Assembly: GCA_964456305.1 (NCBI GenBank)
Contig: CAYWAT010000002.1
Span: 1-62,962, forward strand
Length of the DNA stretch: 62,962 nt
DNA from: an uncultured Polyangiales bacterium
Lineage (GTDB): Bacteria > Myxococcota_A > Polyangia > Polyangiales > CAYWAT01
Direction of reading: 5' to 3'
Positions 8,211 through 49,974 of this stretch are shown here, one piece after another. Made by a program: the position numbers and the translations under genes. The notes beneath the pieces were generated by a model. It had not been told where the DNA came from. It did not search any database and saw only the letters and a list, made by a program, of their open reading frames with translations. Numbering within the stretch: position 1 is the first letter of the stretch; each line of letters begins with the position of its first letter.

Positions 8211-8234
8211 AGCGCCCCCGGGAGGATTCGAACC
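8211..8234. repeat. 24-bp exact duplicate of the 3' end of tRNA-Arg(CCT) (att-like direct repeat)
   Basis: AGCGCCCCCGGGAGGATTCGAACC at 8211-8234 is identical to 8345-8368, which covers the last 22 nt of the tRNA plus 2 nt. No cloverleaf can be built around the first copy. Confidence 0.8.
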
Positions 8235-8346
8235 CAAACGCGCATCGCGAGTTTGCTCCGAAGCGTGTGAACGAAGTGAACGGTTCAGGTCATGACCTGA
8301 ACCAGCGTAGGTGGGTAGTAACCTACTCGAACCGATAGAAGTTCAG

Positions 8347-8420
<74 letters not shown>

Positions 8421-8815
8421 GTATCAAAAATTTAAGTCTTGATTTTTACTCCCCTCGACAGCCACGCATAGAAGCTTGACTATGCATGGTATATCTTGCC
8501 TGCAACTTCTTCAGCCTGGGTCCACGTGATACTGAGCTTCTGCTACCTATTCAACCGATGAGTTTCAATCGTAACTAGGATGAGCGAAGCAAAAGTCACA
8601 AGAAGAAGGCCGAACTGCTTCGTTGCACTCCAACACTTGCGTCTTCGGCAGTGGCTTTTGGCCATCGTTGAGCACCAGGAGAAAAGACGGCGAGGCCGGC
8701 AATAATCCACGTTCGGGCAATATCCCGTCAGAGCAAACGAACTGCAGAGCTAGAAACACAACCCAGCGACCTACGGAATTCTTTCATGAGGTCCGGGAAC
8801 AACTGGAATTCCGCA

Positions 8816-9492
8816 TCAAATCATCTTCCATAAGCATGACAGAGGCACGGCATGAAAGCCGTCGCCAAAGCGTACGGTAGAGTCTCCATCGTAGAGCACG
8901 ATGGCACCGCCAAAAGATTTCTTAGCTGCGGCTTTTAACTTGTGGAGGCCTTTGAAATCCTGGGCCGTGACCGTTGCAGCAGCCTTTACTTCGATACCGA
9001 ATACTTTGCCGCTGGCTTCGAGAACGATGTCAACCTCTGCCTTGTCCTTATCACGGAAATGGCTGAACGTTACGGGCTCTTCATACTAACTCGCATGACG
9101 CTGTAGCTCTTGGTACACGAAGGTCTCGAGCAAACACCCAAACAGTACGCGGTCATCCCAAAGGCTCTTTGCGCTCAGCCCCATGAGCGTGCAAGCAAGG
9201 CCTGTATCGGTGAGGTGAAGTTTGGGGGTTTTGATGAGACGCTTCTCTCGATGACGGTGCCAAGCGGGCAGTTCGTCTCGGCAACATAGCCCACGGGGTC
9301 GGCTCGGGCCGCTGCACGCTGCACGTCGTCATCGAAGGTGAAGTAGGAAAAGCCTTCTTCATCACCGACCAGGCGCGCCAACGTTGTTTTCCCACATTGA
9401 CGAGGCCCGTGAATCAGCACCACAGGTGAGTCCACTAAGGCTTCGGTAACACGTGGGTGGAGATACCGAGGATAGATGGCGTCGTCGCACAT
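8816..9492 (-). pseudogene. Degraded AAA-ATPase / DUF4143 family gene (frameshifted, internally deleted)
   Basis: The N-terminal fragment is ORF 9175..9492 (YPRYLHPRVTEALVDSPVVLIHGPRQCGKTTLARLV, Walker A). A middle piece is in another frame (LFGCLLETFVYQELQRHAS). The C-terminal piece at 8816..9085 has no start codon (YEEPVTFSHFRDKDKAEVDIVLEASGKVFGIEVKAAATV...). Total length is about 225 codons, versus about 400 for intact family members. Confidence 0.7.
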
Positions 9493-9602
9493 TACGTCCG
9501 TTTGCAGATTTTCTCTCGTCCAATTGCAAATTTTTATTCGTCCATTTGTAAGAAAACAAGGTCAAATCCTGGCTATGGTGAACGTCTCAAAGATCGTTCG
9601 AA

Positions 9603-10054
9603 AGCCATTTTGGCGTCGACGTCGCGGTGGGTGACCCGCTCAGTGCAGAACCTGATGAGACCAAGGGAAGTAATCTGCTTGCATTTGCAAGCATCGAATC
9701 CCCGTCGTTTTATCTCTATCCAATCGCTTCTCACATCGCCGAGAAAAAGACCGAACTCACGAGTGAAGAATTTGCCGGACATCGCTCTTTTGGCGAGCGT
9801 TGGAGAGCTTAACGCCCACCATGTACGCACGGCCTTGGAGCAGACATTTTCTTTTCGCGACACTCATACCTTGCCTCAAGAGCTACCTGAGCCGCCTGAC
9901 CTTTTGGACGGAGTCCTATCGTGCGATGGCCATCTCGGACGATCTCCGCTGGCGCACACTGAAAGACGTTCACACAGCAGCAGCGGCATTTCTGGCCCCC
10001 CTGCTTTCGAAGGCAGGTGAGACGCTGCATTGGTCACCCTCCGAATGGCAGTAG
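9603..10054 (+). pseudogene. Degraded AbiEii/AbiGii-family nucleotidyltransferase toxin gene (5'-truncated, about 2 frameshifts)
   Basis: Three frames carry consecutive AbiEii-like segments. They are FGVDVAVGDPLSAEPDET...YLYPIASHIAEK, then RVKNLPDIALLASVGELNAHHVRTALEQTFSFRDTHTLPQELPEPPD, then WTESYRAMAISDDLRWRTLKDVHTAAAAFLAPLL. There is no AbiEi antitoxin gene nearby. Confidence 0.6.
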
Positions 10055-10075
10055 GCTTGATGAAGTCGAACAGCC

Positions 10076-10606
10076 TCACCACTTAAACACATCATCGACT
10101 TTTTTCGGATCGATATCTTTTTTGATGGCAAGCGCCTGTAGAAGGCTACGAACAAAACCCAATGCACCTAGGGGCCACAATAAAAGGGCTGCGACAAGCA
10201 TCACCCAATACCCCAACCCCAAAGTAGAAAGCAGACCTTCGTCGGAGCCCTGCAAACTAAAGGCGCGGATTTGCAACAGAGCAGTAACTTCTGCCCCAAA
10301 ACCGAAAAGCGCTAGCAAAGCGTAAGAGATAACGGTGGGTTGCTTGAAGGCGATATGCGCCGCAACGACGGTCGCAAGCAATAGCGCAGTCGCGATGATT
10401 TTTCCGGGCTGGCTCCCGTCTTCGTGAGAAAAACGCCACGCACTGGACCATGATGTTGCTTCCTTGGCCTGCTTGTGATGAAGCGTTTCACTCTTCTGAT
10501 GAGACGTCGTTGTTTGGGCAAAAGGCAAAAGCGTTCCCGCAAGTCCTAAGAGAACAATAATAAGAGGACTGTATCGGTTTCTGGTAATCGTCGGTAAGAA
10601 TGTCAT
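10076..10606 (-). CDS. Hypothetical membrane protein
   Basis: ORF 10076..10636, with the ATG at 10606 (MTFLPTI...) preferred. It has about 4 hydrophobic helices and no recognisable family. It lies directly downstream of, and co-directional with, the DUF4130-UDG gene. Confidence 0.5.
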   Translation of the reverse strand: MTFLPTITRNRYSPLIIVLLGLAGTLLPFAQTTTSHQKSETLHHKQAKEATSWSSAWRFSHEDGSQPGKIIATALLLATVVAAHIAFKQPTVISYALLALFGFGAEVTALLQIRAFSLQGSDEGLLSTLGLGYWVMLVAALLLWPLGALGFVRSLLQALAIKKDIDPKKVDDVFKW

Positions 10607-10629
10607 CTGAACCCACAAAGTAGCACGCA

Positions 10630-12042
10630 CTAGCATGGCGTTTGTGAAAAGAGGGTCTTCGCTCTCTTCAAATCACCAACCAACGTGTCCCAGCATTGTT
10701 TAGCTTGGTTGGAGTTTTGTGGATCCTGCAGTTTACGGGGATGACAGGTCACCATCGCGGCTGCCGCCCAAGGCGTCTTGAATACCTGTCCACGCGGCTG
10801 CCGCAGATTGAGGTGTGCCCCTAACAACACACGTGCCGCATGCAGCCCTAAGCACAACACTACCTTGGGCTTTAGTTGCTCCAGCTCTGCGATGAGCCAG
10901 TTACGGCAGGCACCTTGTTGCGAAGCCCGCGGTCGTTTGCCCGAGTCCGAACCCATGTGTTTAAAAGCATGCGTCATATAAACATGCTCGCGCTCAATCG
11001 CCGCTACCTGCAAAGCATCCTCGAGCAAGGCACCGTGCCGTCCAGCAAAGGCATGGCCAGCACGGTGATCGTCGGCATGGGGGACATCGCCGAGCACAAC
11101 AAGGGAGGGATGATCAGACCCACAACCCAAAACGCTAGGCTTCGACTGACTGCAGCAACCACACGCACGACATTGACGCAGCTGCTGCTGCACATCGCTC
11201 AACGCGCGTAAAGGCTGACGCAACAAAGGCGCTGGCGAGGGCATCGTTTTCTGCATCGCGATCATTTCATCAACCTGCTGCTGCGCCTCCGCCAGCAAAC
11301 GTGGGATCTCCACCGTCTCTGGCAAGGTTGGCCAATGACGCTTAGGCATCTCGGACTGCATCGCCCGCACCATGACGCGCGTAGGATTAAAAATCGCACA
11401 GTAGTAATCGCGCCAGAGAGATTCGAGCACGTCACTTGTAGGCGCAGCGTGGCGCGGCTGTCCCGGTCCTAGTTGCCAACGCCTGCCATCAAAATGAAGA
11501 GACGCATCCGGAGTCAAAATAGACCAGCGCATATCGCTAAAGCGCTTGGCAAAAAAGGAAGCCACCAGGGGCAAAACCGGATGCTCAGGTTGATGCCAGG
11601 CAACAAAATGCGTCTCATCATCGTCGGTGTTAACCTGCCGAAAACGCACAAAGGCCTTGGTTTTGTGCGAACTGCGCCGCACCGCAGCATCCAAACGCAA
11701 TAGCTCTGCGACATCTGCATCCGCAGCCACGCGCAACACATGCGCTTCGCCGTGCAGCAATCGCCAAAGAAGACGATAAAGCAATGCGCAGCGTGACTCG
11801 CGACGATGGTGTGCAACACGACGTGCAATGCATAGAAAATCGCGCGGGACCTTAAGCTGCGCAGGCTCCTGGCGCGCGCATTTATTTGCCCAGTCGGGGT
11901 CATCAAAAAGCGAACCCGGCGCCAACCATTGAACACGCTCGGGAGGAATACGCTGCCCTAATAAATAGCGGGCACTAAGACGCCATGATTCCCACCCCAT
12001 CTCGATGGGCACAGTAAGATGTCGCGGTGATTTCGCGCTCAT
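10630..12042 (-). CDS. DUF4130 domain fused to a family-4/UdgX-like uracil-DNA-glycosylase-fold domain (partner of the DNA modification/repair radical SAM protein)
   Basis: 470 aa. The N-terminal ~260 aa resemble the conserved partner protein (…FVRFRQV…HFVAWHQPEHPVLPLVASFFAKRFSDMRWSILTP…). The C-terminal ~180 aa are UDG-like (CRAC…LVVLGDVPHADDHRAGHAFAGRHG…VYMTHAFKHM…GKRPRA…ACRNWLIAELEQLKPKVVLCLG…VTCHP). Confidence 0.75.
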   Translation of the reverse strand: MSAKSPRHLTVPIEMGWESWRLSARYLLGQRIPPERVQWLAPGSLFDDPDWANKCARQEPAQLKVPRDFLCIARRVAHHRRESRCALLYRLLWRLLHGEAHVLRVAADADVAELLRLDAAVRRSSHKTKAFVRFRQVNTDDDETHFVAWHQPEHPVLPLVASFFAKRFSDMRWSILTPDASLHFDGRRWQLGPGQPRHAAPTSDVLESLWRDYYCAIFNPTRVMVRAMQSEMPKRHWPTLPETVEIPRLLAEAQQQVDEMIAMQKTMPSPAPLLRQPLRALSDVQQQLRQCRACGCCSQSKPSVLGCGSDHPSLVVLGDVPHADDHRAGHAFAGRHGALLEDALQVAAIEREHVYMTHAFKHMGSDSGKRPRASQQGACRNWLIAELEQLKPKVVLCLGLHAARVLLGAHLNLRQPRGQVFKTPWAAAAMVTCHPRKLQDPQNSNQAKQCWDTLVGDLKRAKTLFSQTPC

Positions 12043-12060
12043 TGCATTCTCTGAACGCTC

Positions 12061-13320
12061 TTAAGTCTGAAGAGGCTGATCGAAGAGAGACAACTGCTGC
12101 GGCTTGACCTGCGCCTCGAGATTCGCGTGCTCCAACCATCGCAGCGGAGCAGGATTACGATCACGGGTGATCACAAAAGGAGCCACCTTACGCAGTGCAA
12201 CACGCATGCGCTGAAGCACAGTCATCGTGATGGGGATGTGACGACGCGAGGCGATGATCTTCTGCGCATTACGCACGCCCAAACCGGGAACGCGCAGCAG
12301 CAGTTCACGTGGTGCGGTATTGAGATCGACTGGAAAGAGTTCGCGATGCTTGAGAGCCCAGGCGAGCTTGGGATCGATATCGAGCCTTAAGTTGGGATCG
12401 GCCTCTGAGGCGATTTCATCCACGTCGAAGCCATAAAAGCGCAGCAACCAATCGGCTTGATACAGGCGATGCTCGCGTACGAGAGGCGGAGCCTTGGCTG
12501 GCATACCCGCTGCTGCAAAAGGAATGGGACTATAGCCGGAGTAATAGACCCGACGCATACGATAACGCGTGTAAAGATGATGGGCGGTATTCAGGACAAG
12601 GCGATCGGGTGAAGGCGTCGCGCCCACAATCATCTGGGTGCTTTGACCCGCGGGTGCGATCATCTCCTTGCGCTTGATACGCCTGGAGCGACGCGCTTGA
12701 ATGCTTTCGTCGATGGCTTCGCGCAGCGCCCCCATGCTCCCCTCGATTTGCTCGCCTTCTTTCTCGGGAGCGAGCCGGTTGAGATCGGCGCGAGAAGGCA
12801 ACTCGATGTTGACGCTCACGCGGTCGGCGTAACGCCCTGCTTTGCGAATCAGTGCATCGCTAGCGCCAGCAACTGCCTTGAGATGGATATACCCGGCAAA
12901 GGCCTCTCGCTCGCGCAAACGTTGAGCGATGCTGATCATCCGCTCCATCGTATCGTCCGCACTGCGACGGACGGCGCTGCTCAAAAACAAGCCTTCTATG
13001 TAGTTGCGACGATAGAAGTCGAGGGTCAGGGTCACGAGCTCGTCGGGCTCGAAGGTGGCGCGCTCTACCCCACTCGATCGACGGCTGACACAATAAGCGC
13101 AATCGTAAATACACACATTGGTCATCAATACTTTGAGCAGCGATATACAACGACCATCGGGGGTATAGCTATGGCAAATGCCCATCCCCTGAGTGCTACC
13201 CAGTCCTTTTTCATTGCGCCCCTTGGAGCCGCTGCTCGCACATGAGGCATCGTATTTGGCCGCGCTGGCGAGCACACGCAGCTTGCGATGAATAGACGGC
13301 TCGGGCATGGCCGCCATCAT
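12061..13320 (-). CDS. Putative DNA modification/repair radical SAM protein (with C-terminal helix-hairpin-helix)
   Basis: 419 aa. It has a CIYDCAYC (CX3CX2C) radical SAM cluster motif and a C-terminal HhH-like LNTAPRELLLRVPGLGVRNAQKIIASRR. Pairing with the DUF4130 protein is as described for this family. Confidence 0.8.
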   Translation of the reverse strand: MMAAMPEPSIHRKLRVLASAAKYDASCASSGSKGRNEKGLGSTQGMGICHSYTPDGRCISLLKVLMTNVCIYDCAYCVSRRSSGVERATFEPDELVTLTLDFYRRNYIEGLFLSSAVRRSADDTMERMISIAQRLREREAFAGYIHLKAVAGASDALIRKAGRYADRVSVNIELPSRADLNRLAPEKEGEQIEGSMGALREAIDESIQARRSRRIKRKEMIAPAGQSTQMIVGATPSPDRLVLNTAHHLYTRYRMRRVYYSGYSPIPFAAAGMPAKAPPLVREHRLYQADWLLRFYGFDVDEIASEADPNLRLDIDPKLAWALKHRELFPVDLNTAPRELLLRVPGLGVRNAQKIIASRRHIPITMTVLQRMRVALRKVAPFVITRDRNPAPLRWLEHANLEAQVKPQQLSLFDQPLQT

Positions 13321-13329
13321 GCAAGGACA

Positions 13330-13345
13330 CTGAACACTTGTCCAG
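13330..13345. promoter_or_regulatory. Near-palindrome CTGAACACTTGTCCAG (LexA/SOS-box-like)
   Basis: The site lies 10-25 bp upstream of the radical SAM start codon (13320), within a 45-bp intergenic gap. Its form is CTGaAC-N4-GTcCAG. On the gene strand it reads CTGGACAAGTGTTCAG. Confidence 0.35.
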
Positions 13346-13365: not shown

Positions 13366-13905
13366 CTAACCCTGGTCAGCAGCCTCAGCTACTTTCTTGA
13401 GGCGCTGCAAACCGTCTTCGTAATAAGAGCCCACCATACCATCGATGCACAGGCCAAAGTAACGTCCGATGATATTCCAGCCGCTATCGCCTTGCATACC
13501 CCAGGTCACTTCTGTGCTCTGGCCCTTTTCTCTGAAACGCCAATAAGCCTGCGCTTGCCCCTGTTCTTTGAAATCCAGATCAATCACAATACGTGCAGGC
13601 GACTGACTTTCGACAATGGTCATCTTGCCCTCACCGCTTTCGTCTCCTTGCCACGTTGCCCACGCGCCCTGACCCGCCTCGGGACCGCCATAGGTGGTCT
13701 TCAGACTTGGGTCGGCGGCTTGCCATGGCGACCATTTTTCATTCTCGCGCAGGTTGTTCACCAGGTTGAAAATCACCGCGGGTTTTGCGTCCATGGATAG
13801 GCTGCGCTCAACCTCATAACCCGAGGGCAAAAACAAGCCCACCAGGAGAAATAGAGCCAGCACGATGCCTAAGCCTGCGAGTATGCGAATGACGATCCGT
13901 TTCAT
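13366..13905 (-). CDS. SRPBCC (START/polyketide-cyclase-like) family protein with N-terminal membrane anchor
   Basis: ORF 13366..13932, with the ATG at 13905 (MKRIVIRILAGLGIVLALFLLVGLFL) preferred. The body resembles SRPBCC-superfamily proteins. Confidence 0.6.
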   Translation of the reverse strand: MKRIVIRILAGLGIVLALFLLVGLFLPSGYEVERSLSMDAKPAVIFNLVNNLRENEKWSPWQAADPSLKTTYGGPEAGQGAWATWQGDESGEGKMTIVESQSPARIVIDLDFKEQGQAQAYWRFREKGQSTEVTWGMQGDSGWNIIGRYFGLCIDGMVGSYYEDGLQRLKKVAEAADQG

Positions 13906-13953
13906 GCGCCTGACTTCACACACGCGAAGCAACGCGTCAATGTAGGACGAGGC

Positions 13954-15483
13954 TCAGCCCTTGCTGTGCTCCTCGCCATCAAAACGCAGCGCAGTATCTT
14001 TATCGGCCGTGCGCGTATGCAACTCCACCGGCCGCTTCCATAAACGAACCAGCGACTCGAGGCATTTCTCGGCCCAGTCCATACGCAAGTCCATGCCCAT
14101 GTGATCATGCACCAGCATCAGTTCACCGCGATTGCCGTGGTTCGCGTTATCCACGTAAATGAAGGGGTTGCCGCCATTGGTGAGCGACGACAGAAGCTGC
14201 TCTTTGACTTGCATAAACTGGCGTGAGGCGATTTCCCAGCGCTCGTGTCGTGGGTTGTAGCCAAAGGCATACATCTTTTGCTCGGCGACAAACTCAGGCG
14301 TGAGAAACTCATCAATAAAGGTTAAGTCGTTGTACAGTGCGCGCACTTCAAATATTTTCTGCTTGCCCAAACCCGTGCGTCTATCCCAGTTGTTACGTCG
14401 AGAAAAGCTATCGCAGTCTTCCCACTCTTTGCCGAACTGACCGCGATTCCATCGCTCTTCAATGTGGCGATAAAGCTCCACGCCCAGTTTATAAGGATTA
14501 AGCTGACCTTGCTGAGTGACCAATACACCGGCACAACGATCGGCATAATCGATGATCTCATCATCCTGACAAAGCTCCTCTGTCATCAGCTTAGAGTGCC
14601 AGTATGTTGCCCATCCTTCATTCATGATTTTGGTCTGACGTTGCGGCAGAAAGTAATAGGCTTCGCGACGAATCATCGCCACCACGTCGCGTTCCCATCG
14701 TTCTAAGGGAGCATGCTGCAACATAAATCCCAGTACATCACGCACGCGAGTCTCGGGAAATTTCTTCTTTTTCTCTTTATCGTCGGCAAGCTTTTGGCGC
14801 TGTTCTTCGACGAATGATTCGGGATTGATAAAGGGATCCATATACGCGTGATCCACACGCAACCGAGGCAATTCTTCGGAGCTTTCTTCATCAACTGTGT
14901 CGCTTTGAGAAGACAGATCATGAGGCGCAAAAGGAAGCTGAGGATCGATCAGATTTTCCAGACTCAGGCAGGTGTCGATCAGCTCTTCAATCGCTTCGAT
15001 ACCCAAGCGGTTAATCCATCGGCGCATCGTTGCCGCGTGATTCGCAATCGTATCGATCCACTTGCGAATGCTCTGCCCGCGTTCACGGTCATATCCCTGG
15101 TCGGTAATGCGAAACGCGAAGTTGTTTTTGAAAAAATCGACGTGGGCGTAGACATGCGCCATCACCAGCTTTTGATCCACCCAGGTATTGCCCTCGAGCA
15201 AATACGCCACCGAGGGATTGTTGTTGATCACCATCTCGTAGATTTTCGATAAACCGTACTCGTAGTTTTTGGCGATGCGCTCGTACTCCATGCCAAAGCG
15301 CCAATGCGGATACCGGGTGGGAAATCCGCCATAGGCTGCAATCTCGTTCATTTGGCTGTAGTTCACCATTTCAAAGAGCACGGGATAAAAATCGAGACCA
15401 CAGGCCGCCGCTTGCTTTTCGATCTGCACCTGTAAATCGCGAATGTCGCTGGGCAGAGCGGTTTGATTGGCAAAGCGACTCAT
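13954..15483 (-). CDS. spoVR: SpoVR family protein
   Basis: 509 aa with full-length similarity to SpoVR/YcgB (…[36 protein letters not shown]…). It abuts yeaH with no gap. Confidence 0.9.
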
Positions 15484-16596
15484 TTATTTCCCCGTCCCAA
15501 GAAAGTCGCGAATGGACTCGATGATGGCGTCGCGATTGCGAATCTCACTAATGATCAAACGCGCATCATCTTTAAAATGCTGACTGAGATCTTTAAGGAA
15601 CTGCCCCGAACCGTAAGGACTTTCGACCTGGCCGTAACAAAACACATTGGCCACTGGCAGCAGCACATCTTGCATAAGGGTCAGACATTGCTGGGTGTCC
15701 TCGCCGCTCCAGTTATCGCCATCGGAAAAATGAAAGGGATAAATATTCCATTGCTCGCGCGGATAGTCGGTCTCGATGATCTTAGCCGCCAGCTGATAGG
15801 CCGAGGAAATCATGGTGCCACCCGACTCGCGTGTGCGAAAAAAGGTGTCGCGATCGACTTCACGCGCAACGGCGTCGTGAATGATATAACGTGTAGCCAG
15901 CTTGGGATAATGCTTACGCAGCCAAACATCGATCCAAAAGGTCTCTGTGCGCACAATGTCCTTTTGGTCCTGCCCCATCGATCCCGAGACATCCATCATG
16001 TAGATAATCACGGCGTTGGCGGCGGGCTCGTCGATCAGCTTGGGCGCCTTGTAACGCATATCGCTGCGCGAAGGAATGATCACCGGATTGCTGCGATCGT
16101 AGGTGCCCGATGAAATCTGACGACGCAGCGCCTGACGAAAGGTGCGCTTAAAGTGCTTGAGCGAGTTAGGGCCCACGGGACGAACGCCCACGTAACGACT
16201 CTTTTTTTCGTCCATCACTGGACGCCCTCGCGGCTCGATAGCTGGAAGCGCCAGGGCTTCGCCTAGAATATCGGCAAGCTCATCAAAACTCAGTTCGACC
16301 TCGAGAGGATGCTCACCCGGATCCTGCCCTGCTTCCCCAGCTCCAGAAGAACCCTCTTGAGGGTCGCCTCCCAAGGAATCCCCCACATCACCTTCACCCT
16401 GAGCCACCCCCCCCTGCTGCTTTTCAGCATGACGAAAGCGGGGAATGTCCACCTGTGGCAGAGGAATGGACACGCTTTTGTTGCCCTGACGTCCAAGCAA
16501 CTCGCCATGCGTCAGGTACTTGCGCAAATCTCTGCGGATGCGCCCGCGCACAATCTCGCGATAACGACTATGATCTTGACCGATTCGAAGTGCCAC
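15484..16596 (-). CDS. yeaH: YeaH/YhbH family protein (DUF444)
   Basis: 370 aa. [18 protein letters not shown]…[11 protein letters not shown]…[13 protein letters not shown] match YhbH/YeaH. The start is a GTG at 16596 with no obvious SD sequence. Confidence 0.85.
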
Positions 16597-16783: not shown

Positions 16784-18403
16784 CTACGTGCCACTGCGAA
16801 CACCGCTAAACAAGATCTCCATTTCTTTAGCGGCTTCTTCAAATGCTAGCGATATCTGACCGTTATGCTCAAACAAAAACTTGCCATGACTTGCCTTAAT
16901 AGGTCGGTCTAGAGGGAGCTTTCTAACGATCAATTTCTCTATCTCGCGAAGCTCTTTCTCACGTATGCATATCTCAACATAATCAGAAATTCTAAATCCC
17001 ATTCCATAAATGCTTTTAAATCCATCAAGCGAAGCAGGATTTGTCCGTGCAACTTCATCAAAGTGAAAACGTGCCATCAGCTGAGGATCTATTAAATTTG
17101 CCTCGGTGTAATCGCGACAAAATCTTTGATATGTCCTTCCCGATCGCTGGGTGCTGCTGATTACAAAAGGTAAGTCTATCGAAGACAATCCCATTGTTGC
17201 TGTTAATACCACGGCAAGAGAATCTGCTTCTATTTCTACAGAAGCAGGATGGAGTCCATCAAAATTTTTCAAGACCTCAAACGTAGTTTCTTCAAGCTGA
17301 TTTATTGCTTTATCAGCGCTTTGATGTGGATTAGAAAAAGCCTGATTAAGTGAATTTCGACGCACGGGCGAAATCACAATATTATCAATCATTGAAAAAA
17401 TAACTTTCTCAACGAAATCCTGATTCAGCTGACATTGGCTAAGAAGAGCAAGAAACACTCGCCCCCTTGCCTGAAGTTCATTGATGTAGCCCTCTGAGTC
17501 CAGAACTCCTGTGCCAGCATGGTCACCTCCAATACCTACGTAGTCAAAAACCGATGATGCACCTCTAACCAGGCCACTAGGATTGGGATGATGACAAATA
17601 AATTCAGTGCCTTTGTCTCCGTACACATGAGCCCACAAAACCCAATAAGCCATCGATGTTGTCCAGATTGACGTCGCGTTTTTCCCTGCTCCAACCATTG
17701 CAATCATGTTGCGCAAATCGAAGTAATCAATACGATCAAGATCCCGCTTAACGTCTACAAGTCGCTGAGAACTATCAATGACATTGAGAAATGAACCTGC
17801 ATAATAGTCTATATAGCGGTTTCCATGACCATAAAACAAATGAGATAATTCATGAGCTAAAACGATAGTAATGAACGTTTCATTGCGTTGATCATGTGGG
17901 ATGAATGAAAGATACCCTTGGTCGATAAAAATAGTCCACCAAGTCTTAACGGCAGGTCTTTGCGAAGGATCAGTAGAGTTAACAATCCGGGCACCAGCAT
18001 TATCGGTATCAAGAATCACAATCTCTGGCATGCCCAGTTCACGTATTGGATCATCTGGATCAAGACGCTTGAGTAAGGTCGAATAGACCTCGTAAAGCAC
18101 TCGTTCGAGATACGCATAGCTTTTGGGCGCATCACGCCGCTCGACAACTTCTGCACCAAGCAGATAAAGCAAATCGGCTCGCTCCGAGGCGGAAGCTTCG
18201 CTCCACTTGATCACGAACCTAGGATCAATATGCGAACGATTTTGCGCTAATGCGATCTCAGCACGACGCTGGAGATTTGCTCTGATAGCAGCAGTGCTTT
18301 TAGCATCCACATCTCCCGGGTTTGCAGTACCGCAAGCCCATAGTGAACACAGCATCAATAAACACAAAAATCCAATAGCGCAGTGGCTTACTCTTAAGCA
18401 CAT
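16784..18403 (-). CDS. Lipoprotein, divergent M48-like zinc metalloprotease
   Basis: ORF 16784..18409 (TTG), with an ATG at 18403. It has a lipobox LCSLWAC, an HELSHLFYGH (HExxH) motif and a downstream VEIEADSLAV resembling the E-x-E-A-D motif of M48 peptidases. The gene is visibly AT-richer than its neighbours. Confidence 0.6.
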   Translation of the reverse strand: MCLRVSHCAIGFLCLLMLCSLWACGTANPGDVDAKSTAAIRANLQRRAEIALAQNRSHIDPRFVIKWSEASASERADLLYLLGAEVVERRDAPKSYAYLERVLYEVYSTLLKRLDPDDPIRELGMPEIVILDTDNAGARIVNSTDPSQRPAVKTWWTIFIDQGYLSFIPHDQRNETFITIVLAHELSHLFYGHGNRYIDYYAGSFLNVIDSSQRLVDVKRDLDRIDYFDLRNMIAMVGAGKNATSIWTTSMAYWVLWAHVYGDKGTEFICHHPNPSGLVRGASSVFDYVGIGGDHAGTGVLDSEGYINELQARGRVFLALLSQCQLNQDFVEKVIFSMIDNIVISPVRRNSLNQAFSNPHQSADKAINQLEETTFEVLKNFDGLHPASVEIEADSLAVVLTATMGLSSIDLPFVISSTQRSGRTYQRFCRDYTEANLIDPQLMARFHFDEVARTNPASLDGFKSIYGMGFRISDYVEICIREKELREIEKLIVRKLPLDRPIKASHGKFLFEHNGQISLAFEEAAKEMEILFSGVRSGT

Positions 18404-18506
18404 AAGCAATCCAACTTCTTATAAGAACAACAGTAAGAACGAAAAGAGGCGCTAAGTTAGCACCGCCCCTAATCAGGTCAATGCAGCAATAAGCTTGCGA
18501 CGCGAG

Positions 18507-19256: not shown

Positions 19257-22200
19257 CTACCAGCCAGCCCCCTCTACAATCACCTTTTCGCTACGGCTGC
19301 GGCCAAAGGTTTCGGGGTGGTAGATTTCCCGAACGTGGGCAGGGGCAGCAAGGAATTGCCCCGGTGTGGTCGCACGCGTGGTGTAGGTATAGATATACAC
19401 GCCGGCAGCAAGCTGAGTGGCCATGACTTCGGCGCCTTGATTGCGCAGGTTGTGATGATCGTACCAAGCAGCAGGCATGATCCCATATCGATGTATCGTC
19501 GAAGCACGTGCATTGGTGCGCACTGGCATAGGCATAAAGGGCGGCTTGGGGTCTTGAGGATAAAGGGCCAAGTTGGGATTTTCGGGCTCAAGCCCTGCGG
19601 GCAAGGCATCGCGCACAGCCACATGGGATCGACGATCGTAAACCACTAAGGTAAGCCGCACGCGGACGCGGGACCCGGCACGCACATGCCAAGCGCCCTT
19701 TGCATAATGCACATCGTCGGGATCATCCGCGCCTTCATAACGACGCTCGATCGCAAAGCCATGATCCACAGCCGCTTGTTTCATTTGCTTGGGCGCATAC
19801 TGCATGCCCAGACGGTAATAGAGACGACCTTGCCCCTGTTTACGCAGCAAGACATCCATCCACTGCGGATGCTTAACCAACTCCGCCATGGGCACATGCT
19901 GCGCGTTGCGGTCACCAATGCGACGCAGGGTTTTCGCCGTCAACAACTGCGGTCCCAGCCATGCGCGCACATTCATGATCGCAGAAGCTTTCTTTGAAGC
20001 TGAGCGCGGACGCTCATAACGCTGGAAATAGTCGCTCAAGGCCAACGCCATAAAGCTATCTTCCTGACTATTGCCGACTCGCCGATGCTGGTAATGCTGC
20101 GTCAATCCACGCACGAGTTTGGCAATCGCATCATGCTGAGGCGCAACCCTCATCAAGCCCGCAAGCAGCAATGCGTCTGCCCTTCGCTCCGAATGCAACA
20201 GCATATAGGCCTGCTCATCGTACTGCGTCACCACATGCGCGGTTGCCGCGCTTTCGACGATGCGATTGTTTAAGTAAACCAGCACACGTTCCACTTCAGC
20301 TTTGTCGCTTGCGATCACCGGCAGCAACCAAGCCATCGCCTCGACAGGCAGCTCCTTTAAAGGAAGTGAGTGCAATAGCTCCAACGCGAAGGGCAAGGGC
20401 TTGATAGAAGCACCATCGTTGAGATGCTGCACATACAACGCATAGGCTCTCAGCGTTGTCCGCACAGGCACGGATGCGCTGGCAACGTTGCCGTGATTCT
20501 GTGCAAGGGAAGCAACGTAACGCAGCAAGGGCTTCTTCAAGATCTCTGGGACCAGATGCCCTGCTTTTTCTGCACGCAACAAGGCATGCGCCACATGAAT
20601 GCTAGCAAAGGGCGAGGTGGGCAAAGACAATCCAGGCCACACGGCAAAGCTGCCATCGCGATGCTGCAAGGCTTGCAATCGACGCAGTTGAGCGCCTAAG
20701 GCCTCTGCAGCGTGCTTGGACGAGGGCAAGTCAGAAGCACCAAGCGCCTGCTGCACTTCCGCCAAGGCCAAGCGTGTGATCATGCGTGACGCAATGGCCT
20801 CGGGAAAATGCCAAGCTTCTTTTTCGAGCCCAGTGTAAGCATCGCGCAGCACATGTAACTGCGTGCGACTAAAACGCAGATCGAGACCGCCAAACTCAGG
20901 CCATGCATCCTGCGGTGGCTTAAGCGCATAACGTCGCGCACCTTCATCAAGCTCCCCATAAGTAGCAACGCTCTCTTCGGTAGCCGGGGTCCAAACAGGT
21001 AGAGTCACCTCGGCGGCATCGCGCAACACCTCATCCTGTGCAGCAGAACGCCCTGTCGCCACCCACTGCAAACGGGCCTCACCCACCTGATTTGCCCGCG
21101 CCTTAAAACGCAGCTCGCGACGCACACCAGCAGGCAAGTGCAGACGATATCCTCTCACAGCGTCCAGCTTTAGATCACGACTGCGCAGCCCCACCTGCAC
21201 ATCAAGTGCACGGGAACTCTGATTGCGAATGAGCAACGGGATTTCCGCCCGATCACCTAGGTTGAGCAAACGCGGCGCCGAAGGCTGCAGCATCAATGCT
21301 TTGCGCACCGTCAGCGCACTCTCGCCCTTGCCGAAGAAATCTTTGTCGTGTGCTGCAAAGGCAATCACGCGATAGCGCGTGAGATTATGCGGCAGCGTCA
21401 AGCTCTGCTGTACGCGACCCTGAGCATCACTGCGCAGCGCGGGCGCAAAAAGAGCCAAGGCACGAAAATCACGCCGTACAGAGACTCCCGGCATAAGCTT
21501 GTTAGTTCTCGCGGCGTATTGGTTTTGAGCGACAGCGCTGCCCTCCAATGCATCCACATCCAGACTTTGAGCGCTCGCTCTGGCCATGTCCGTATGATCT
21601 TTATGAGCCTGACCATCTCGCCTTTTCGTTTTGTCCTGCTCGACCAGGGCCAAAACATGACGTCGTAGTTCATCACTCCAAACCCCAGGACCACGTCGAT
21701 GAAAAAATACATCTAAGGGATTCGCAAAATTGGCATCGCTGAGCGCAAGCACGGCTTCATCCACCACCAATAAAGCTACCTCAGCGTTGGCTGCAGGACG
21801 TCCATCGTGACGATTGACCTGCACCTTTAGACGCACCGGCTCACCTGGCTCGGCCACCTTAGGGATGGACTGCACCTGCGTTGTCAGCTTTTGATGCACA
21901 GGCGGGATAGCCAGCTCCACCTGTCCCGAAGCATGGCCAATATCGCCTTGCGCCGTTGTACCACGCATACCAACCGCGTGAACCTGCACATGCACATTGG
22001 GTGTAAAGGCAGCCTCCAAAGGTACCTCAATGAGGGCATGACGCTCACTTACGCGCTTTTGCTCTTGATGCACGATACCGTTGCGCATCCAGGTGATAAA
22101 AAGTTGAGCTGGTGCGAAAGGAAGCTGCAGGGCCACCCGCGCGGTATCACCCGGGCGATACGCCTCCTTGTCCGGCATCATGGTTACGCGATCTGCGTTA

Positions 22201-25200
22201 ACCCGAGCGTTGGGCAGAGTCACGTCCCCCACCACCCAATAACGCATCACGCTCTCATTAGAACGCCCAGCGCGATCGTGAGTGCGCGCGATGATGCGAT
22301 ACATGCCCGCCTTCGCGATGGGCCAACTGCAATGCCCCGCCTTCGTCATCGAGGTCGTGCGACATTGCTGCATCTCCTTGGCCTCTTCGTGCCAGCGCCC
22401 CTTGCGAAACCTTCCTTCTAAGCGCGCCACCTGGATATGAATGGGATAACCCTGCTGAAGCTCACCATCGATAGTGGTCACGATGCTCTCGATGCGCAGC
22501 ATCTCCCCAACCCGCACGAAATTCTGCGGCGTACGCAGACCCACGTAAACCTTCGCAGGGTGCAACAGCAACGCGTGACGCGCCGTCCAGGCCTGGCGAT
22601 TGAGATCCTGCACCTGGGCTTCAATCGCTATCTGACGCGGGCGCACCGGATCCATGCCTTGCCAGTCGAGGCGCAGCGTGTGCTTTCCGTGTGCGTTGGT
22701 CCGGCCCTCATAACGTTGCCTGGTGGCGGCCTGCGGCATGCGCCAGTCCTCAAACCACCAGGGATTCCATTCGCCAAAATGAAAGTCATCTTGATTAGGC
22801 GGCCTAAAATGTCCCTTCTGGGAGCGCACTGTCCACTTGACCGAAGCGTTGGCCAGCCCTCCACCCGCATAATAGTTAGCCTGCACGGTGGCCTCGCTGG
22901 GTTCTTTGAGCAGATGGAAAGCCTTTGCCATATCCAGCGACACTTCAAACTCCGGTCGCCGATAGCTCTGCACCTGCACATGATGAATAGTGATATGGGG
23001 AGAGCGCTGACGATCTTTAGAGGGCTTGCTGGCGTACAACGTCACCGTTGCCGTCCCTAGATTGGCCTCCTTAGGAAAAGTAGTCTTAAGATCGAAGCCG
23101 CCCAATGTGCTCAGCTTCAGCGGACCCTCACTCAGGACATTGCCACGTGCTCCGGTGAGGCGATAAAAAAGGTTGCGCGGCAGTTCAGCGAGCCCCGCAA
23201 TGCCGCCGCGCGGACGCATGTCCAGCTTACGCAGCCAACCTTTGAGACGAAGAGCCTCGCCTGGCTGATAAACGCCTCTGTCGTCGGTGATAAAGCTCTG
23301 CCAGCGCGGACTTTGGGCTTGATGAGGATGATAGGCATGAGGCAACAAAGCCCTGTCCTCGCCATGCTGCACCTCGATCAATGATCGACCTTCCGAATCT
23401 TTTTTCGCCTTTGGACCGAGCTTAAACTGAGCCATTCCGGCTGCGTTCGTCCGCGCTTCAACGCCCAAAGGACGGACACGCACCTGCGCATTCGCGATGG
23501 GTTCACCCGTCTTTAGAGAGGTCACCGCCACCTGCAGTGTCGTATCGTCTTGCCATGAACTAATGCCCAACTGCGTTGACTGCACCCACAGCACGCGATG
23601 GGCTGGATCATGAACCGGTCGCTTAGACGAAGAAGCTGAACGTAGCTCGACGATCAGATGTCCTTGGCCTCGATTATTGAGCCAACGCGAGAGCGATAAA
23701 TCCGTGGCGACTTGCCCGCTTTTCCAGCCCGCCGGAACCTTTACATCCTGAGTCGCCAGCAAGGTGCCCGGCCACTGCACCAGCACGCGTGGGTCGCCCT
23801 TGGCATTAAAGCCATAACGCTGTGTACGACGTAGAGCTTTGTAGTAGTCGGGCCACTGGTGAGGCTCGACACGTCGCACCTTAGCCCGCAACCTCGGCAA
23901 GCCTTGCGAAAGCACTCTGAGCTTGGGGACTGCGGCCCAAGGGTTGAGCACCAACTGCTCTCGATGCAGCGCAATGCTTGGTCGTACTGGTTGCACCCGC
24001 ATTGTTACAGGCTTTGTCGCTCCCAGCGTTTGACCAAAAACATCGCGCAGGGTTGGCGGCAAGTTGAGCTTGTACACGGTATCGGCCTGCATCTTGCCAG
24101 ACAGCACCAAGCCCCAAGGGTTCACCTGCAGCTCAAGCCCATCAACCACTGGCTGCACCTGGATATCGCGCACATCGATAGCCTGCTCCGCCAGGGCGTG
24201 GTTGAAGTTAATGTGCCAACTGTCCTGTGCTCTGCATGGGCGCTTCGCGTTGCAATTCGCCCCCTTGAAAGCCAGGGGACCGTAGGTTTGAAAGCTGTGC
24301 GTGAATGCCCGCGCACTAAGACGAGGGCCTTCCTGAGACGGAGCCCCGGCTTTGATACGCAGCTGCACCTTACTGCCTCTGGGCAGAGCCTGTGTTGGCA
24401 ACAAGGTCAGAGTTCTGGTTTGCAGCTCATCAACATGCGCTGCCTTGAGTTGAGCCTGAGCTTTGGGGTGCGCCTTGAGATCGGCAGCCGTAGCCTGACG
24501 CAGCGCATAAGAGCGACCTCGGCTGCGTAGCTCGACCCATTCCAGGACTTTGTGGGCATCAATCGCTTGGTTGAAACGCAGGATCATCGGCGTTTGATTT
24601 GAGTATTCACCCTTAGACGGAGGCCACACCTTGCTCACCTCGAGAGCAGGTGTCGTAAAACGCGTCGTGTACGAGCGCCGAAGGGTCTTACCCGCCGCAG
24701 ACTTCAATCCTGCGGGGATTTTCAGGGTGTACGCGGTCGCCATCGGAAAGCGTCGTGTTTTTCCCTGACTTCGAGGCTCAAAAAGCAGGGTGCGCGTCCC
24801 CACCCAACGCCATTGTCCCGGCGGTTGCGGCTCAAGACGAATAGCCGGCAAGGAACTGCGGGCATCGATATGCGCCGCAAGAGCAACCATAGGCTGGGAA
24901 AAAACAATGCTCAGATGCGAGGCAATATCAACATCACCCTTGGGCGTGACGCGTATTACCTTAAGAGGGCCAGAATCGTCGCGATCTTCAGGTGCAGCAG
25001 CGTTAGTCGGAAACGCAGTCTGCACAGGGACCTCATCCTGCTGTGGCCGCGGCATAGACGTGGATGGCAACGCAAAGGTTTTCTTAGACGGCGCAGGTTT
25101 AGCGCTTGGCTCAGCGAGGCCAGCAAAAAGAGGTGTGACGTGTTCAGAATCAAGAGTCTCTATTGAGTCGCTGTCATCGTCAGCGATCGAGGACTTTACC

Positions 25201-25385
25201 GCTGCAGAGTCGTTGGATGCGCTTTGCTCTAGCTTGAAGACAAGACCATCGTCCTTGCTTTTGCTCTGCTCTTGCGCGGACTCGATAGGAGGCAGCGGTA
25301 ATGCTTGCGAGCCTGGCGATAAACTTTGACTGCAGCCCAAGCCTAGCGCGATAACGAAAGTGATGAGCGATCGCATACTTTGCAT
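19257..25385 (-). CDS. Alpha-2-macroglobulin family lipoprotein (2042 aa, no thioester motif)
   Basis: It has a lipobox ALGLGCSQS. A2M hallmarks are VVDEAVLAL, RRDFRALALFAP…, LPHNLTRYRVIAFA, HRDGSFAVWPG and DALPAGLEPENP. The C-terminal ~1000 residues contain no Cys at all, so no CxEQ thioester is possible. Confidence 0.85.
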   Translation of the reverse strand: MQSMRSLITFVIALGLGCSQSLSPGSQALPLPPIESAQEQSKSKDDGLVFKLEQSASNDSAAVKSSIADDDSDSIETLDSEHVTPLFAGLAEPSAKPAPSKKTFALPSTSMPRPQQDEVPVQTAFPTNAAAPEDRDDSGPLKVIRVTPKGDVDIASHLSIVFSQPMVALAAHIDARSSLPAIRLEPQPPGQWRWVGTRTLLFEPRSQGKTRRFPMATAYTLKIPAGLKSAAGKTLRRSYTTRFTTPALEVSKVWPPSKGEYSNQTPMILRFNQAIDAHKVLEWVELRSRGRSYALRQATAADLKAHPKAQAQLKAAHVDELQTRTLTLLPTQALPRGSKVQLRIKAGAPSQEGPRLSARAFTHSFQTYGPLAFKGANCNAKRPCRAQDSWHINFNHALAEQAIDVRDIQVQPVVDGLELQVNPWGLVLSGKMQADTVYKLNLPPTLRDVFGQTLGATKPVTMRVQPVRPSIALHREQLVLNPWAAVPKLRVLSQGLPRLRAKVRRVEPHQWPDYYKALRRTQRYGFNAKGDPRVLVQWPGTLLATQDVKVPAGWKSGQVATDLSLSRWLNNRGQGHLIVELRSASSSKRPVHDPAHRVLWVQSTQLGISSWQDDTTLQVAVTSLKTGEPIANAQVRVRPLGVEARTNAAGMAQFKLGPKAKKDSEGRSLIEVQHGEDRALLPHAYHPHQAQSPRWQSFITDDRGVYQPGEALRLKGWLRKLDMRPRGGIAGLAELPRNLFYRLTGARGNVLSEGPLKLSTLGGFDLKTTFPKEANLGTATVTLYASKPSKDRQRSPHITIHHVQVQSYRRPEFEVSLDMAKAFHLLKEPSEATVQANYYAGGGLANASVKWTVRSQKGHFRPPNQDDFHFGEWNPWWFEDWRMPQAATRQRYEGRTNAHGKHTLRLDWQGMDPVRPRQIAIEAQVQDLNRQAWTARHALLLHPAKVYVGLRTPQNFVRVGEMLRIESIVTTIDGELQQGYPIHIQVARLEGRFRKGRWHEEAKEMQQCRTTSMTKAGHCSWPIAKAGMYRIIARTHDRAGRSNESVMRYWVVGDVTLPNARVNADRVTMMPDKEAYRPGDTARVALQLPFAPAQLFITWMRNGIVHQEQKRVSERHALIEVPLEAAFTPNVHVQVHAVGMRGTTAQGDIGHASGQVELAIPPVHQKLTTQVQSIPKVAEPGEPVRLKVQVNRHDGRPAANAEVALLVVDEAVLALSDANFANPLDVFFHRRGPGVWSDELRRHVLALVEQDKTKRRDGQAHKDHTDMARASAQSLDVDALEGSAVAQNQYAARTNKLMPGVSVRRDFRALALFAPALRSDAQGRVQQSLTLPHNLTRYRVIAFAAHDKDFFGKGESALTVRKALMLQPSAPRLLNLGDRAEIPLLIRNQSSRALDVQVGLRSRDLKLDAVRGYRLHLPAGVRRELRFKARANQVGEARLQWVATGRSAAQDEVLRDAAEVTLPVWTPATEESVATYGELDEGARRYALKPPQDAWPEFGGLDLRFSRTQLHVLRDAYTGLEKEAWHFPEAIASRMITRLALAEVQQALGASDLPSSKHAAEALGAQLRRLQALQHRDGSFAVWPGLSLPTSPFASIHVAHALLRAEKAGHLVPEILKKPLLRYVASLAQNHGNVASASVPVRTTLRAYALYVQHLNDGASIKPLPFALELLHSLPLKELPVEAMAWLLPVIASDKAEVERVLVYLNNRIVESAATAHVVTQYDEQAYMLLHSERRADALLLAGLMRVAPQHDAIAKLVRGLTQHYQHRRVGNSQEDSFMALALSDYFQRYERPRSASKKASAIMNVRAWLGPQLLTAKTLRRIGDRNAQHVPMAELVKHPQWMDVLLRKQGQGRLYYRLGMQYAPKQMKQAAVDHGFAIERRYEGADDPDDVHYAKGAWHVRAGSRVRVRLTLVVYDRRSHVAVRDALPAGLEPENPNLALYPQDPKPPFMPMPVRTNARASTIHRYGIMPAAWYDHHNLRNQGAEVMATQLAAGVYIYTYTTRATTPGQFLAAPAHVREIYHPETFGRSRSEKVIVEGAGW

Positions 25386-49815: not shown

Positions 49816-49974
49816 AGGCAAAACCTCCTCGTTCACGGCTTAAGTTATGTACGCTAATAAATCTCATAAACGCTCGATTCCGTTTATGATCCCTAACTCT
49901 TTGACGAAGGGCAAACCAATTTATGAAAATTGGTCTTATTTTTGCGTTGTCTCAAACTGTGCCAAGTTACGCTA

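Follow-up and report, generated by a model that had tools for sequence, protein, structure and literature searches.

A radical-SAM/DUF4130 gene pair with a degenerate UdgX-like domain and a candidate LexA operator in a divergent myxobacterium

Described relatives of the locus

Genes for a radical S-adenosylmethionine (SAM) protein and for a DUF4130 protein occur as a pair in about a fifth of prokaryotic genomes, and, as TIGRFAMs describes the family, roughly 60% of its members are without a uracil-DNA glycosylase (UDG) domain. One such pair lies in the stretch of DNA analysed here, 62,962 nucleotides (nt) of contig CAYWAT010000002.1 from an uncultured Polyangiales bacterium, which is referred to below as the window. 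The DUF4130 protein of this pair is fused to a UdgX-like UDG domain that has lost the residues used for catalysis and uracil binding, and the spacer ahead of the operon contains an imperfect palindrome, which is a candidate operator for LexA.

For a homologous radical-SAM/DUF4130 pair, a preprint reports a high-confidence AF3 complex in which DUF4130 is likened to the nucleotide-binding region of DHH/RecJ-type proteins (bioRxiv 10.64898/2026.08.19.745780). Aravind and colleagues tied the family to SOS components and to neighbourhoods containing a mutagenic polymerase and ImuB-C, and drew an analogy between the radical-SAM family and spore photoproduct lyase (PMC3765255). An operon of the same two genes, COG1573-COG4277, has been described by the Erill laboratory as being under LexA control in Verrucomicrobia, Alphaproteobacteria and Bacteroidetes, where a LexA-type box suited to the taxon lies directly upstream (PMC8565304), and radical-SAM/DUF4130 genes belong to the damage response of Moraxellaceae (PMC12392091). 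SOS control of the operon family is thus already published and is to be regarded as known.

A counterpart of the UDG domain that is often fused to the DUF4130 protein is UdgX of M. smegmatis, a stand-alone protein that binds uracil-DNA covalently. Motif A of UdgX, GEQPG, was defined in the same work in which substitutions of H109 were found to turn UdgX into an excising enzyme, while deletion of the loop, the change of RRIH to SSAS or the single substitution R107S abolished even the binding of DNA (PMC4787834). The Protein Data Bank (PDB) holds UdgX mutants at E52, Q53, H109 and R184, that is, at residues that have been studied for their function.

Loss of the catalytic motifs in the UDG domain

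The fusion gene and the parts of it that are discussed in this section are as follows.

10630-12042, minus strand: DUF4130 (TIGR03915) gene fused to a degenerate UdgX-like UDG domain, 470 amino acids; open reading frame (ORF) call and hidden Markov model (HMM)
11314-11997, minus strand: DUF4130 domain, residues 16-243, normally conserved; HMM and alignment
10660-11199, minus strand: UdgX-like family-4 UDG fold, residues 282-461, catalytic and uracil-binding residues lost; alignment and AlphaFold2 (AF2)/Foldseek
11077-11091, minus strand: degenerate motif A, GDVPH for GEQPG (E52 to D, Q53 to V and G55 to H in UdgX numbering); alignment
10924-10974, minus strand: THAFKHM (for TNAVKHF) and the collapsed loop GSDSGKR/PRA with a five-residue deletion; alignment

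The best 119 of 3,160 matches to the fusion protein were aligned, and deviations were counted at columns that are conserved in at least 95% of these homologs. The UDG domain of the window departs from the family at 19 of 50 such columns; the 119 homologs do so at 0.56 columns on average and at five at most. In motif A, the E, the P and both G residues never vary among the homologs, and 117 of the 119 have the Q. The Asn of TNxVKHF is likewise invariant, and in nearly all the homologs the loop that follows is RR[IL]H. The replacement of GEQPG by GDVPH and of TNAVKHF by THAFKHM, which had been proposed in an earlier note made from the window sequence, is borne out by this alignment. The same note described the loop as reading KRPRA. 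The KRRIH motif is indeed gone, but the window does not have a substituted loop: a deletion of five residues has taken out R-[I/L]-H-x-K, including the equivalent of the covalent His109. Motif B begins with H-P-[S/A] in canonical homologs and continues as HPS(S/A)(L/I)L(R); in the window it begins with HPR and reads HPRKLQD, of which only the first two residues are retained. The PFVGPAG segment has undergone changes of P to A and R.

The correspondence between UdgX and the window protein, as given by the alignment, is listed below.

UdgX E52: D319 in the window
UdgX Q53: V320 in the window
UdgX N91: H358 in the window
UdgX H109: deleted in the window protein
UdgX R184: D440 in the window
UdgX H178: retained as H434 (H434-P435)
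Four Fe-S cysteines: retained as C291, C294, C379 and C397

Judged by these alignments with UdgX, family-4 UDG and homologous sequences, the catalytic motifs are not intact; their loss is real, is more extreme than the earlier note stated, and makes the window protein an outlier among its homologs.

The decay appears to be confined to the UDG half of the cassette, because the 19 deviating columns out of 50 in this half are to be compared with 2 of 45 in the DUF4130 half (homologs: mean 0.6, maximum 3) and 7 of 144 in the radical-SAM protein (homologs: mean 1.6, maximum 8). Identity to the nearest relatives tells the same two halves apart, being 60-62% for the DUF4130 half and only 37-38% for the UDG half; among the nearest relatives themselves the two halves are equally diverged. 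These relatives, which are 50% identical to the fusion protein overall, retain GEQPG, TNAVKHF, KRRLH and HP[AS]. As their motifs are intact, the decay of the UDG domain postdates the split from them. When 1.84 billion representatives were searched exhaustively by HMMER with only the UDG half as query, no sister protein sharing the degenerate state came up: only the window protein itself scored below an expectation value (E) of 1e-30, and the next match was 40% identical. The UDG half nevertheless has an intact reading frame of about 190 codons, with a codon-position GC pattern like that of the DUF4130 half.

The fold seems to have outlived the motifs. The closest solved relative by sequence is M. 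smegmatis UdgX (E 1.4e-24), and UdgX structures are also the top Foldseek matches of the AF2 model of the domain (E about 5e-16, target template modelling (TM) score about 0.8), which agrees with the previous assignment of the domain to the UdgX branch. With UdgX (PDB 6AIL, 6AJO and others) the window domain shares the four Fe-S cysteines and the His-Pro of motif B. It differs in having GDVPH, in the change of the TNAVKHF Asn to His, in the deletion of the KRRIH loop with His109, in the change of R184 to Asp, and in being fused to DUF4130. The family-4 UDGs (Thermus/Thermotoga UDGa, TIGR00758) have the same alpha/beta fold with an Fe-S cluster; their structures 1UI0, 1L9G and 1VK2 match the window domain with E about 1e-16 by sequence and with target TM scores of 0.86-0.88 by fold. 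Unlike these enzymes, the window domain has neither the motif-A sequence GE[AQ]PG nor the uracil-binding Asn (TH for TN).

The residues that have been lost (N91, the KRRIH loop and R184) serve UdgX in binding and not only in cleavage. For this reason it is predicted that the UDG domain no longer recognises or traps uracil-DNA and, by analogy with the UdgX mutants, that it should neither bind uracil-DNA nor form a complex stable in sodium dodecyl sulfate. We infer that it survives as a folded, structural or Fe-S appendage of the DUF4130 protein. The earlier note had suggested a lesion- or base-binding module in place of a uracil excision enzyme. The excision motifs are lost, as this suggestion required, but the residues for binding DNA and uracil are lost with them, and the domain is more probably a structural or Fe-S remnant than a reader of lesions.

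Partial losses of a similar kind are seen elsewhere among UdgX-like proteins. P0281 (locus L207, 55-1506) is an independent DUF4130 fusion, 39% identical overall, which reads GDQPG and THAVKHF and has no His in the loop. It shares with the window protein the change of E to D, the change of N to H and the loss of the loop His, and retains most of the other conserved residues. Two further UdgX-like proteins, P0275 and P0269, have lost their defining motifs in part.

The radical-SAM protein and the family membership of the pair

The features of the first gene of the operon are given below.

12061-13320, minus strand: radical-SAM/helix-hairpin-helix (HhH) gene (TIGR03916), 419 amino acids; ORF call and HMM
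13090-13113, minus strand: CX3CX2C motif for the [4Fe-4S]/SAM cluster, C70/C74/C77 in CIYDCAYC; motif in alignment
12241-12330, minus strand: HhH DNA-binding motif, residues 331-360; Pfam HHH_3

The radical-SAM protein scores 547.9 bits against TIGR03916 (cutoff 343.5), and the fusion protein scores 184.4 bits against TIGR03915 (cutoff 112.25) and matches PF13566 with E 3.4e-35. Both proteins are thus above the cutoffs of the TIGR03916/TIGR03915 pair (the COG4277 radical-SAM-HhH protein and the DUF4130 "putative DNA repair protein"), and the assignment to TIGR03916 with TIGR03915/TIGR03914, made in the earlier note, proved correct, with the UdgX-like domain in the fused position. Members of this pair are often fused to TIGR03914. 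In the window the UDG part stays below the cutoff of that model (120.9 bits, cutoff 189.95) and of the family-4 UDG model TIGR00758 (81.8 bits, cutoff 125.3), and is without the defining motifs; the fusion protein also matches PF03167 in Pfam. Gene order, CX3CX2C motif, HhH motif and a damage-type candidate operator upstream are as in the described pair. The two genes are on the same strand, separated by 18 nt, with the radical-SAM gene directly 5' of the fusion gene, an arrangement found in 83 of 84 related loci.

That the first protein is a radical-SAM enzyme with a CX3CX2C motif and a C-terminal HhH motif, as had been claimed, is confirmed. C70, C74 and C77 are invariant in the 26-sequence family alignment (A2), and the HHH_3 match has E 9e-6 and 26.1 bits, just below the Pfam threshold of 27. 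A profile of the 26 family members, when compared with the PDB, finds only the cluster motif of HydE/HydG and the HhH motif of ComEA (E 0.01) and, weakly, of RuvA; neither this profile nor single-sequence searches found a solved relative in the PDB. The protein is 66-68% identical to its nearest relatives and, as far as the conserved columns tell, is under the normal conservation of its family. Spore photoproduct lyase and the SplB-like proteins (COG1533) are likewise radical-SAM enzymes which act on DNA and are repeatedly SOS-regulated. They are, however, a different family: neither the window sequence nor the family profile matched spore photoproduct lyase in the PDB, and the window protein has an HhH tail and an obligate DUF4130 partner.

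The palindrome upstream of the operon

13330-13345, no strand assigned: imperfect 16-bp palindrome CTGGACA-AG-TGTTCAG (gene strand), candidate Myxococcota-type LexA operator; sequence

The only non-coding DNA ahead of the operon is the 45 nt between the stop codon of the preceding SRPBCC gene and the ATG of the radical-SAM gene. The palindrome CTGGACAAGTGTTCAG lies within this spacer, on the gene strand at 13345..13330. It had been placed 10 bp upstream of the operon; it is present as described, but its distance from the ATG at 13320 is 9 nt. Its half-sites, CTGGAC and GTTCAG, are related by dyad symmetry, and it overlaps a -35-like hexamer, TGGACA. The sequence is non-coding, with an in-frame TAG upstream and no start codon between the palindrome and the ATG. 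A terminator was considered and rejected on account of the 2-nt loop and the missing run of T.

The consensus CTRHAMRYBYGTTCAGS of the M. xanthus LexA box has been confirmed (PMC9705874). The palindrome matches this consensus, which is that of M. xanthus and may not be that of the host lineage, at 14 of 17 positions on the gene strand, the count given earlier, and at 15 of 17 on the plus strand. Of the symmetric core CTGNACNNNNGTNCAG the window has a single exact copy; with one mismatch allowed there are three sites against 2.15 expected. A sigma-70 scan returned TGGACA-17-CATGAT, one such site being found against 2.0 expected, which is not significant alone.

One indication that the palindrome is a regulatory site comes from a second genome. 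Locus L022, from a Polyangiales metagenome-assembled genome (MAG), has ACTGGACAAGTGTTTAG ahead of the orthologous gene, about 18 nt from its likely GTG start codon. This box is identical to that of the window at 15 of 16 positions, between flanks that cannot be aligned and in front of genes whose products share only 51% identity. By our own arithmetic, assuming equiprobable bases and about 28,500 upstream positions in the 84 loci, a match as good as this would arise by chance with a probability of about 3e-4. A search for relatives of L022 by which the footprint could be widened gave none above about 50% identity. In all, the box is seen in two of the nine Myxococcota or related loci examined. 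It rises above chance by virtue of its location, its dyad symmetry and its conservation in L022.

The 16-mer CTGGACAAGTGTTYAG was also looked for in metagenomes, where at least 120 matches occur, which look like chance occurrences; not one of the matches listed precedes a radical-SAM, lexA or recA gene. In two metagenome contigs (L091, 1607-1622, and L106, 8465-8480) the 16-mer of the box falls within a family-4 UDG-like coding sequence, where its probable translation is L-D-K-C-L, part of the conserved LLDxxL segment. This occurrence is judged to be coincidental and not regulatory.

SOS control of the operon family

Taxon-specific boxes precede the operon in several groups of bacteria. Among alphaproteobacteria-like loci, an exact GTTC-N7-GTTC, which we take to be the alphaproteobacterial LexA box, is present within 150 nt upstream in 33 of 49, as compared with 0.6% of background windows. 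The radical-SAM gene is preceded by TGTTC-N4-GAAC in an Akkermansiaceae locus, by CTGT-N8-CCAG in a Variovorax locus (L073) and by TTCGC-N6-TTCGC repeats in acidobacterial loci (L013, L015). The SOS system repeatedly targets the operon family, each group having its own type of box. The operons of PMC8565304 differ from that of the window in this respect, the window box being of the Myxococcus type (CTRHAMRYBYGTTCAGS-like). The paper on the M. xanthus LexA regulon (PMC9705874) does not report the operon, "radical SAM" and "uracil" having no occurrences in it.

Some single loci deserve mention in this connection. In L025, a MAG labelled Janthinobacterium lividum, a direct repeat ATTCGC-N5-CTTCGC upstream of position 4667 is like that of the acidobacterial L013 and L015 and unlike that of Variovorax L073, which may be due to mis-binning or horizontal transfer. 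In the alphaproteobacterial locus L059 (4329-4739), a gene for a LexA/UmuD-like S24 peptidase, matched by residues 55-198 of E. coli LexA with E 4e-13, lies directly upstream of the radical-SAM gene. In Archangium L205 (about 1700-1725) and in Myxococcaceae L006 (upstream of 4733), sequences containing ACGTCA(G) are found shortly before the start of the radical-SAM gene; these are perhaps for a different regulator.

As the host is a myxobacterium, as the box is conserved in L022 and as the family carries taxon-specific LexA boxes, control of the window operon by LexA is predicted and is regarded as moderately probable. The hint of SOS control in the earlier note has become more plausible through the L022 box and the boxes of the family, but is tempered by the Myxococcota loci, described below, that have no box.

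Proposed function and alternative explanations

By combining the available information it is possible to propose how the operon might work. After the literature on the family, the radical-SAM and DUF4130 proteins would form a heterodimer, in which the radical-SAM protein would contribute a non-specific HhH module for DNA binding and the DUF4130 protein would be its obligate partner. The heterodimer would apply a SAM-derived radical to damaged nucleic acid, probably single-stranded DNA. In most of the fused members of the family the C-terminal domain is a bona fide UdgX-type trap for uracil or apurinic/apyrimidinic (AP) sites. In the lineage of the window this domain has lost the uracil-recognition Asn, the Glu/Gln of motif A, the covalent His loop and the wedge Arg, while keeping its fold and Fe-S ligands, and may represent a natural intermediate on the way to the family members without a UDG domain. 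The core activity would then need no trapping of uracil or AP sites in this lineage, which fits the majority of family members that are without the domain. LexA bound to the palindrome would repress transcription, and the RecA-stimulated cleavage of LexA after damage would relieve the repression. The joint reading, a LexA-repressed operon of the DNA-damage response whose UDG domain no longer captures uracil-DNA, is considered likely, with some reserve.

Several observations weigh against one or the other part of this reading. The IUPAC consensus of the box is loose: the window has two sites with at least 15 of 17 matches, and mononucleotide shuffles have 2.2. In M. xanthus, a box with two mismatches (that of recN) was not bound by LexA in vitro (PMC9705874). 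The two closest relatives, L001 and L004, have only weak versions of the box, with 13 of 17 matches, and no comparable box was found in six other Myxococcota loci, which are those of three Polyangiaceae, a Myxococcaceae MAG, Archangium and Sorangium (L005, L006, L030, L061, L205 and L206, the last two being Archangium and Sorangium). The expectation that orthologous promoters would contain the palindrome therefore held for L022, weakly for L001 and L004, and not for these six. In the window, neither Pfam scans of some 45 ORFs nor tblastn searches with the LexA and RecA sequences of E. coli detected lexA, recA or any other SOS gene. Upstream of the operon, the DUF444, SpoVR and SRPBCC genes are co-directional with short gaps, and transcription could read through from them. 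All this leaves an appreciable, if minor, chance that the palindrome is not a LexA operator and instead is the site of another regulator, part of a promoter (with TGGACA as -35) or a chance repeat, the operon being constitutive or co-transcribed with SpoVR and SRPBCC. The chance-level match to the consensus, the absence of the box from most Myxococcota orthologs, the two mismatches shared in number with the unbound M. xanthus site and the shortness of the 45-nt spacer behind a co-directional gene would all be explained in this way. What it would not explain are the 15 of 16 identical positions in L022, at the same position and between unrelated flanks, the dyad-symmetric half-sites GTTCAG/CTGGAC, which are typical of the Myxococcus-type box, and the LexA boxes of the operon family across phyla.

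With regard to the UDG domain, the predicted loss of uracil binding is drawn from mutants of a different protein, and the mean predicted local distance difference test (pLDDT) score of 89 of the AF2 model owes something to the canonical homologs that were aligned. A changed specificity would likewise be compatible with the retained fold, the Fe-S ligands and the open frame. The domain might accordingly have been re-tooled, with D319, H322, H358 and H362 forming a pocket for another damaged base or for a metal and targeting the complex to a lesion. Besides the preservation of some 190 intact codons with fold and Fe-S ligands, it speaks for such a pocket that the independent fusion P0281 shows the same change of E to D and of N to H and the same loss of the loop His, and that other representatives also carry TH for TN. 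Re-tooling is nonetheless unlikely: the 19 changed positions are not a focused subset and include the wedge Arg (R184 to D) and the P to A and R changes of PFVGPAG, deletion of the loop abolishes DNA binding in UdgX, P0281 retains most of the other conserved residues, and no clade shares the degenerate state, so that nothing points to purifying selection on a new motif. Its stronger form, in which the degenerate domain would represent the UdgX fold in a second functional state, redirecting the radical-SAM/DUF4130 pair to a non-uracil lesion without suicide cross-linking, must be called quite unlikely.

Two explanations for the cassette as a whole also have to be weighed. It could be a decaying, non-functional remnant, as the heavy degeneration of the UDG half and the gene fragment and duplicated tRNA 3' end downstream might suggest. 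This is hardly credible in view of the two intact ORFs and of the radical-SAM and DUF4130 parts, which keep essentially all the family-invariant residues at 60-68% identity. The pair could also be a system of DNA modification or anti-phage defence and not of repair, the chemistry of the family being unsolved, its curated name reading "modification/repair", and the Moraxellaceae regulator controlling damage-response and defence genes alike (PMC12392091). A role of this sort is very improbable. No protein has a PADLOC match and PHROG yields only a weak match to the UDG fold, on which grounds a defence-system or phage origin was discarded; no mobile-element or defence-island genes are adjacent, and the family has LexA boxes across phyla and lies in mutagenic polymerase and ImuB-C contexts (PMC3765255). 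A LexA-repressed damage-response operon with a UDG domain that has given up uracil capture is the reading that we prefer.

Host and neighbourhood of the operon

The window is chromosomal, as it carries the genes for Era, Der, RpoN, CydAB and GpsA and tRNA genes. All best matches of Der whose source is named belong to Myxococcota or to an unclassified deltaproteobacterium (for example Sandaracinus, Sandaracinaceae, Polyangiaceae and Polyangiales). Because these best myxobacterial matches are only 48-54% identical, the host is a myxobacterium that branches deeply and has no close relative sequenced; the closest homologs of the fusion and radical-SAM proteins are 50% and 68% identical, respectively, and an exact look-up of the radical-SAM protein gave no record. 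Other genes around the operon are the following.

13366-13932, minus strand: SRPBCC/polyketide-cyclase-like gene, upstream of the radical-SAM gene; family matches
13954-15483, minus strand: SpoVR gene, upstream of the SRPBCC gene; family matches
15484-16596, minus strand: DUF444 gene, upstream of SpoVR; family matches
10076-10636, minus strand: orphan membrane ORF, 186 amino acids; ORF call and hydropathy

The start of the small membrane ORF overlaps the stop codon of the fusion gene (ATGCTAG, a 7-nt overlap) in the same direction, and the ORF is possibly co-translated with the fusion gene. Four of its segments are hydrophobic, and its codon-position GC pattern is weak. It could be assigned to no family of Pfam, NCBIfam, PADLOC or PHROG, tblastn gave no match in the 84 related loci, and no homolog was present among 5.8 billion proteins. 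A small membrane protein gene does follow the pair in the same direction, as had been pointed out, but it was rejected as a component of the conserved cassette given its absence from the 84 loci and the missing homologs, and it appears to be a lineage-specific orphan.

DUF444 and SpoVR are adjacent (13954-16596), as in prkA-yeaH-ycgB clusters. The ORF next upstream of DUF444 (16784..18409, 541 amino acids) was considered as PrkA and rejected, there being no Pfam match; it has a lipoprotein-like N-terminus and a metallopeptidase-like motif, HELSH. A few kb upstream of the cassette, at 19257-25385 on the minus strand, is the gene for a bacterial alpha-2-macroglobulin-like protein of 2042 amino acids (MG2, bait region, A2M, bMG10).

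On the other side of the operon, a tRNA-Arg(CCT) gene is located at 8346-8420 on the minus strand. Its 3' end is perfectly duplicated over 24 nt, AGCGCCCCCGGGAGGATTCGAACC on the plus strand, the copies at 8211-8234 and 8345-8368 being 134 nt apart from start to start. The duplication resembles a scar left at an att site by an integrative element. From the tRNA to the orphan ORF, about 1.6 kb (8421-10075) are poor in genes: they contain just short ORFs that overlap one another and, at 9175-9492 on the minus strand, a truncated fragment (105 amino acids) of an AAA_14 ATPase, probably the degraded remains of an inserted gene. At some distance, ARAGORN calls a 91-nt tRNA-Gly(GCC) at 48844-48934 on the minus strand, inside the RpoN ORF (48340-49836). 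Rfam gives this call no support, and it is probably a false positive.

Significance

Both the cassette and its SOS wiring are of known kinds, and the locus alone does not reveal the chemistry of the radical-SAM/DUF4130 pair. What is new here is a thoroughly inactivated UdgX domain in a poorly sampled lineage. Apparent LexA-type control of the operon is extended to a branch of the Myxococcota, with a candidate operator that is conserved across two very divergent genomes. Should it be true that the UdgX fold has a second functional state, comparing the two states would reveal the substrate of the radical-SAM pair. The fusion has, as it were, been dissected by nature: normal constraint acts on the radical-SAM and DUF4130 parts, and the UdgX-type trap has been let go. 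Decay of the UDG domain alone argues that the capture of uracil or AP sites is an accessory to the core activity of the pair and not a requirement for it.

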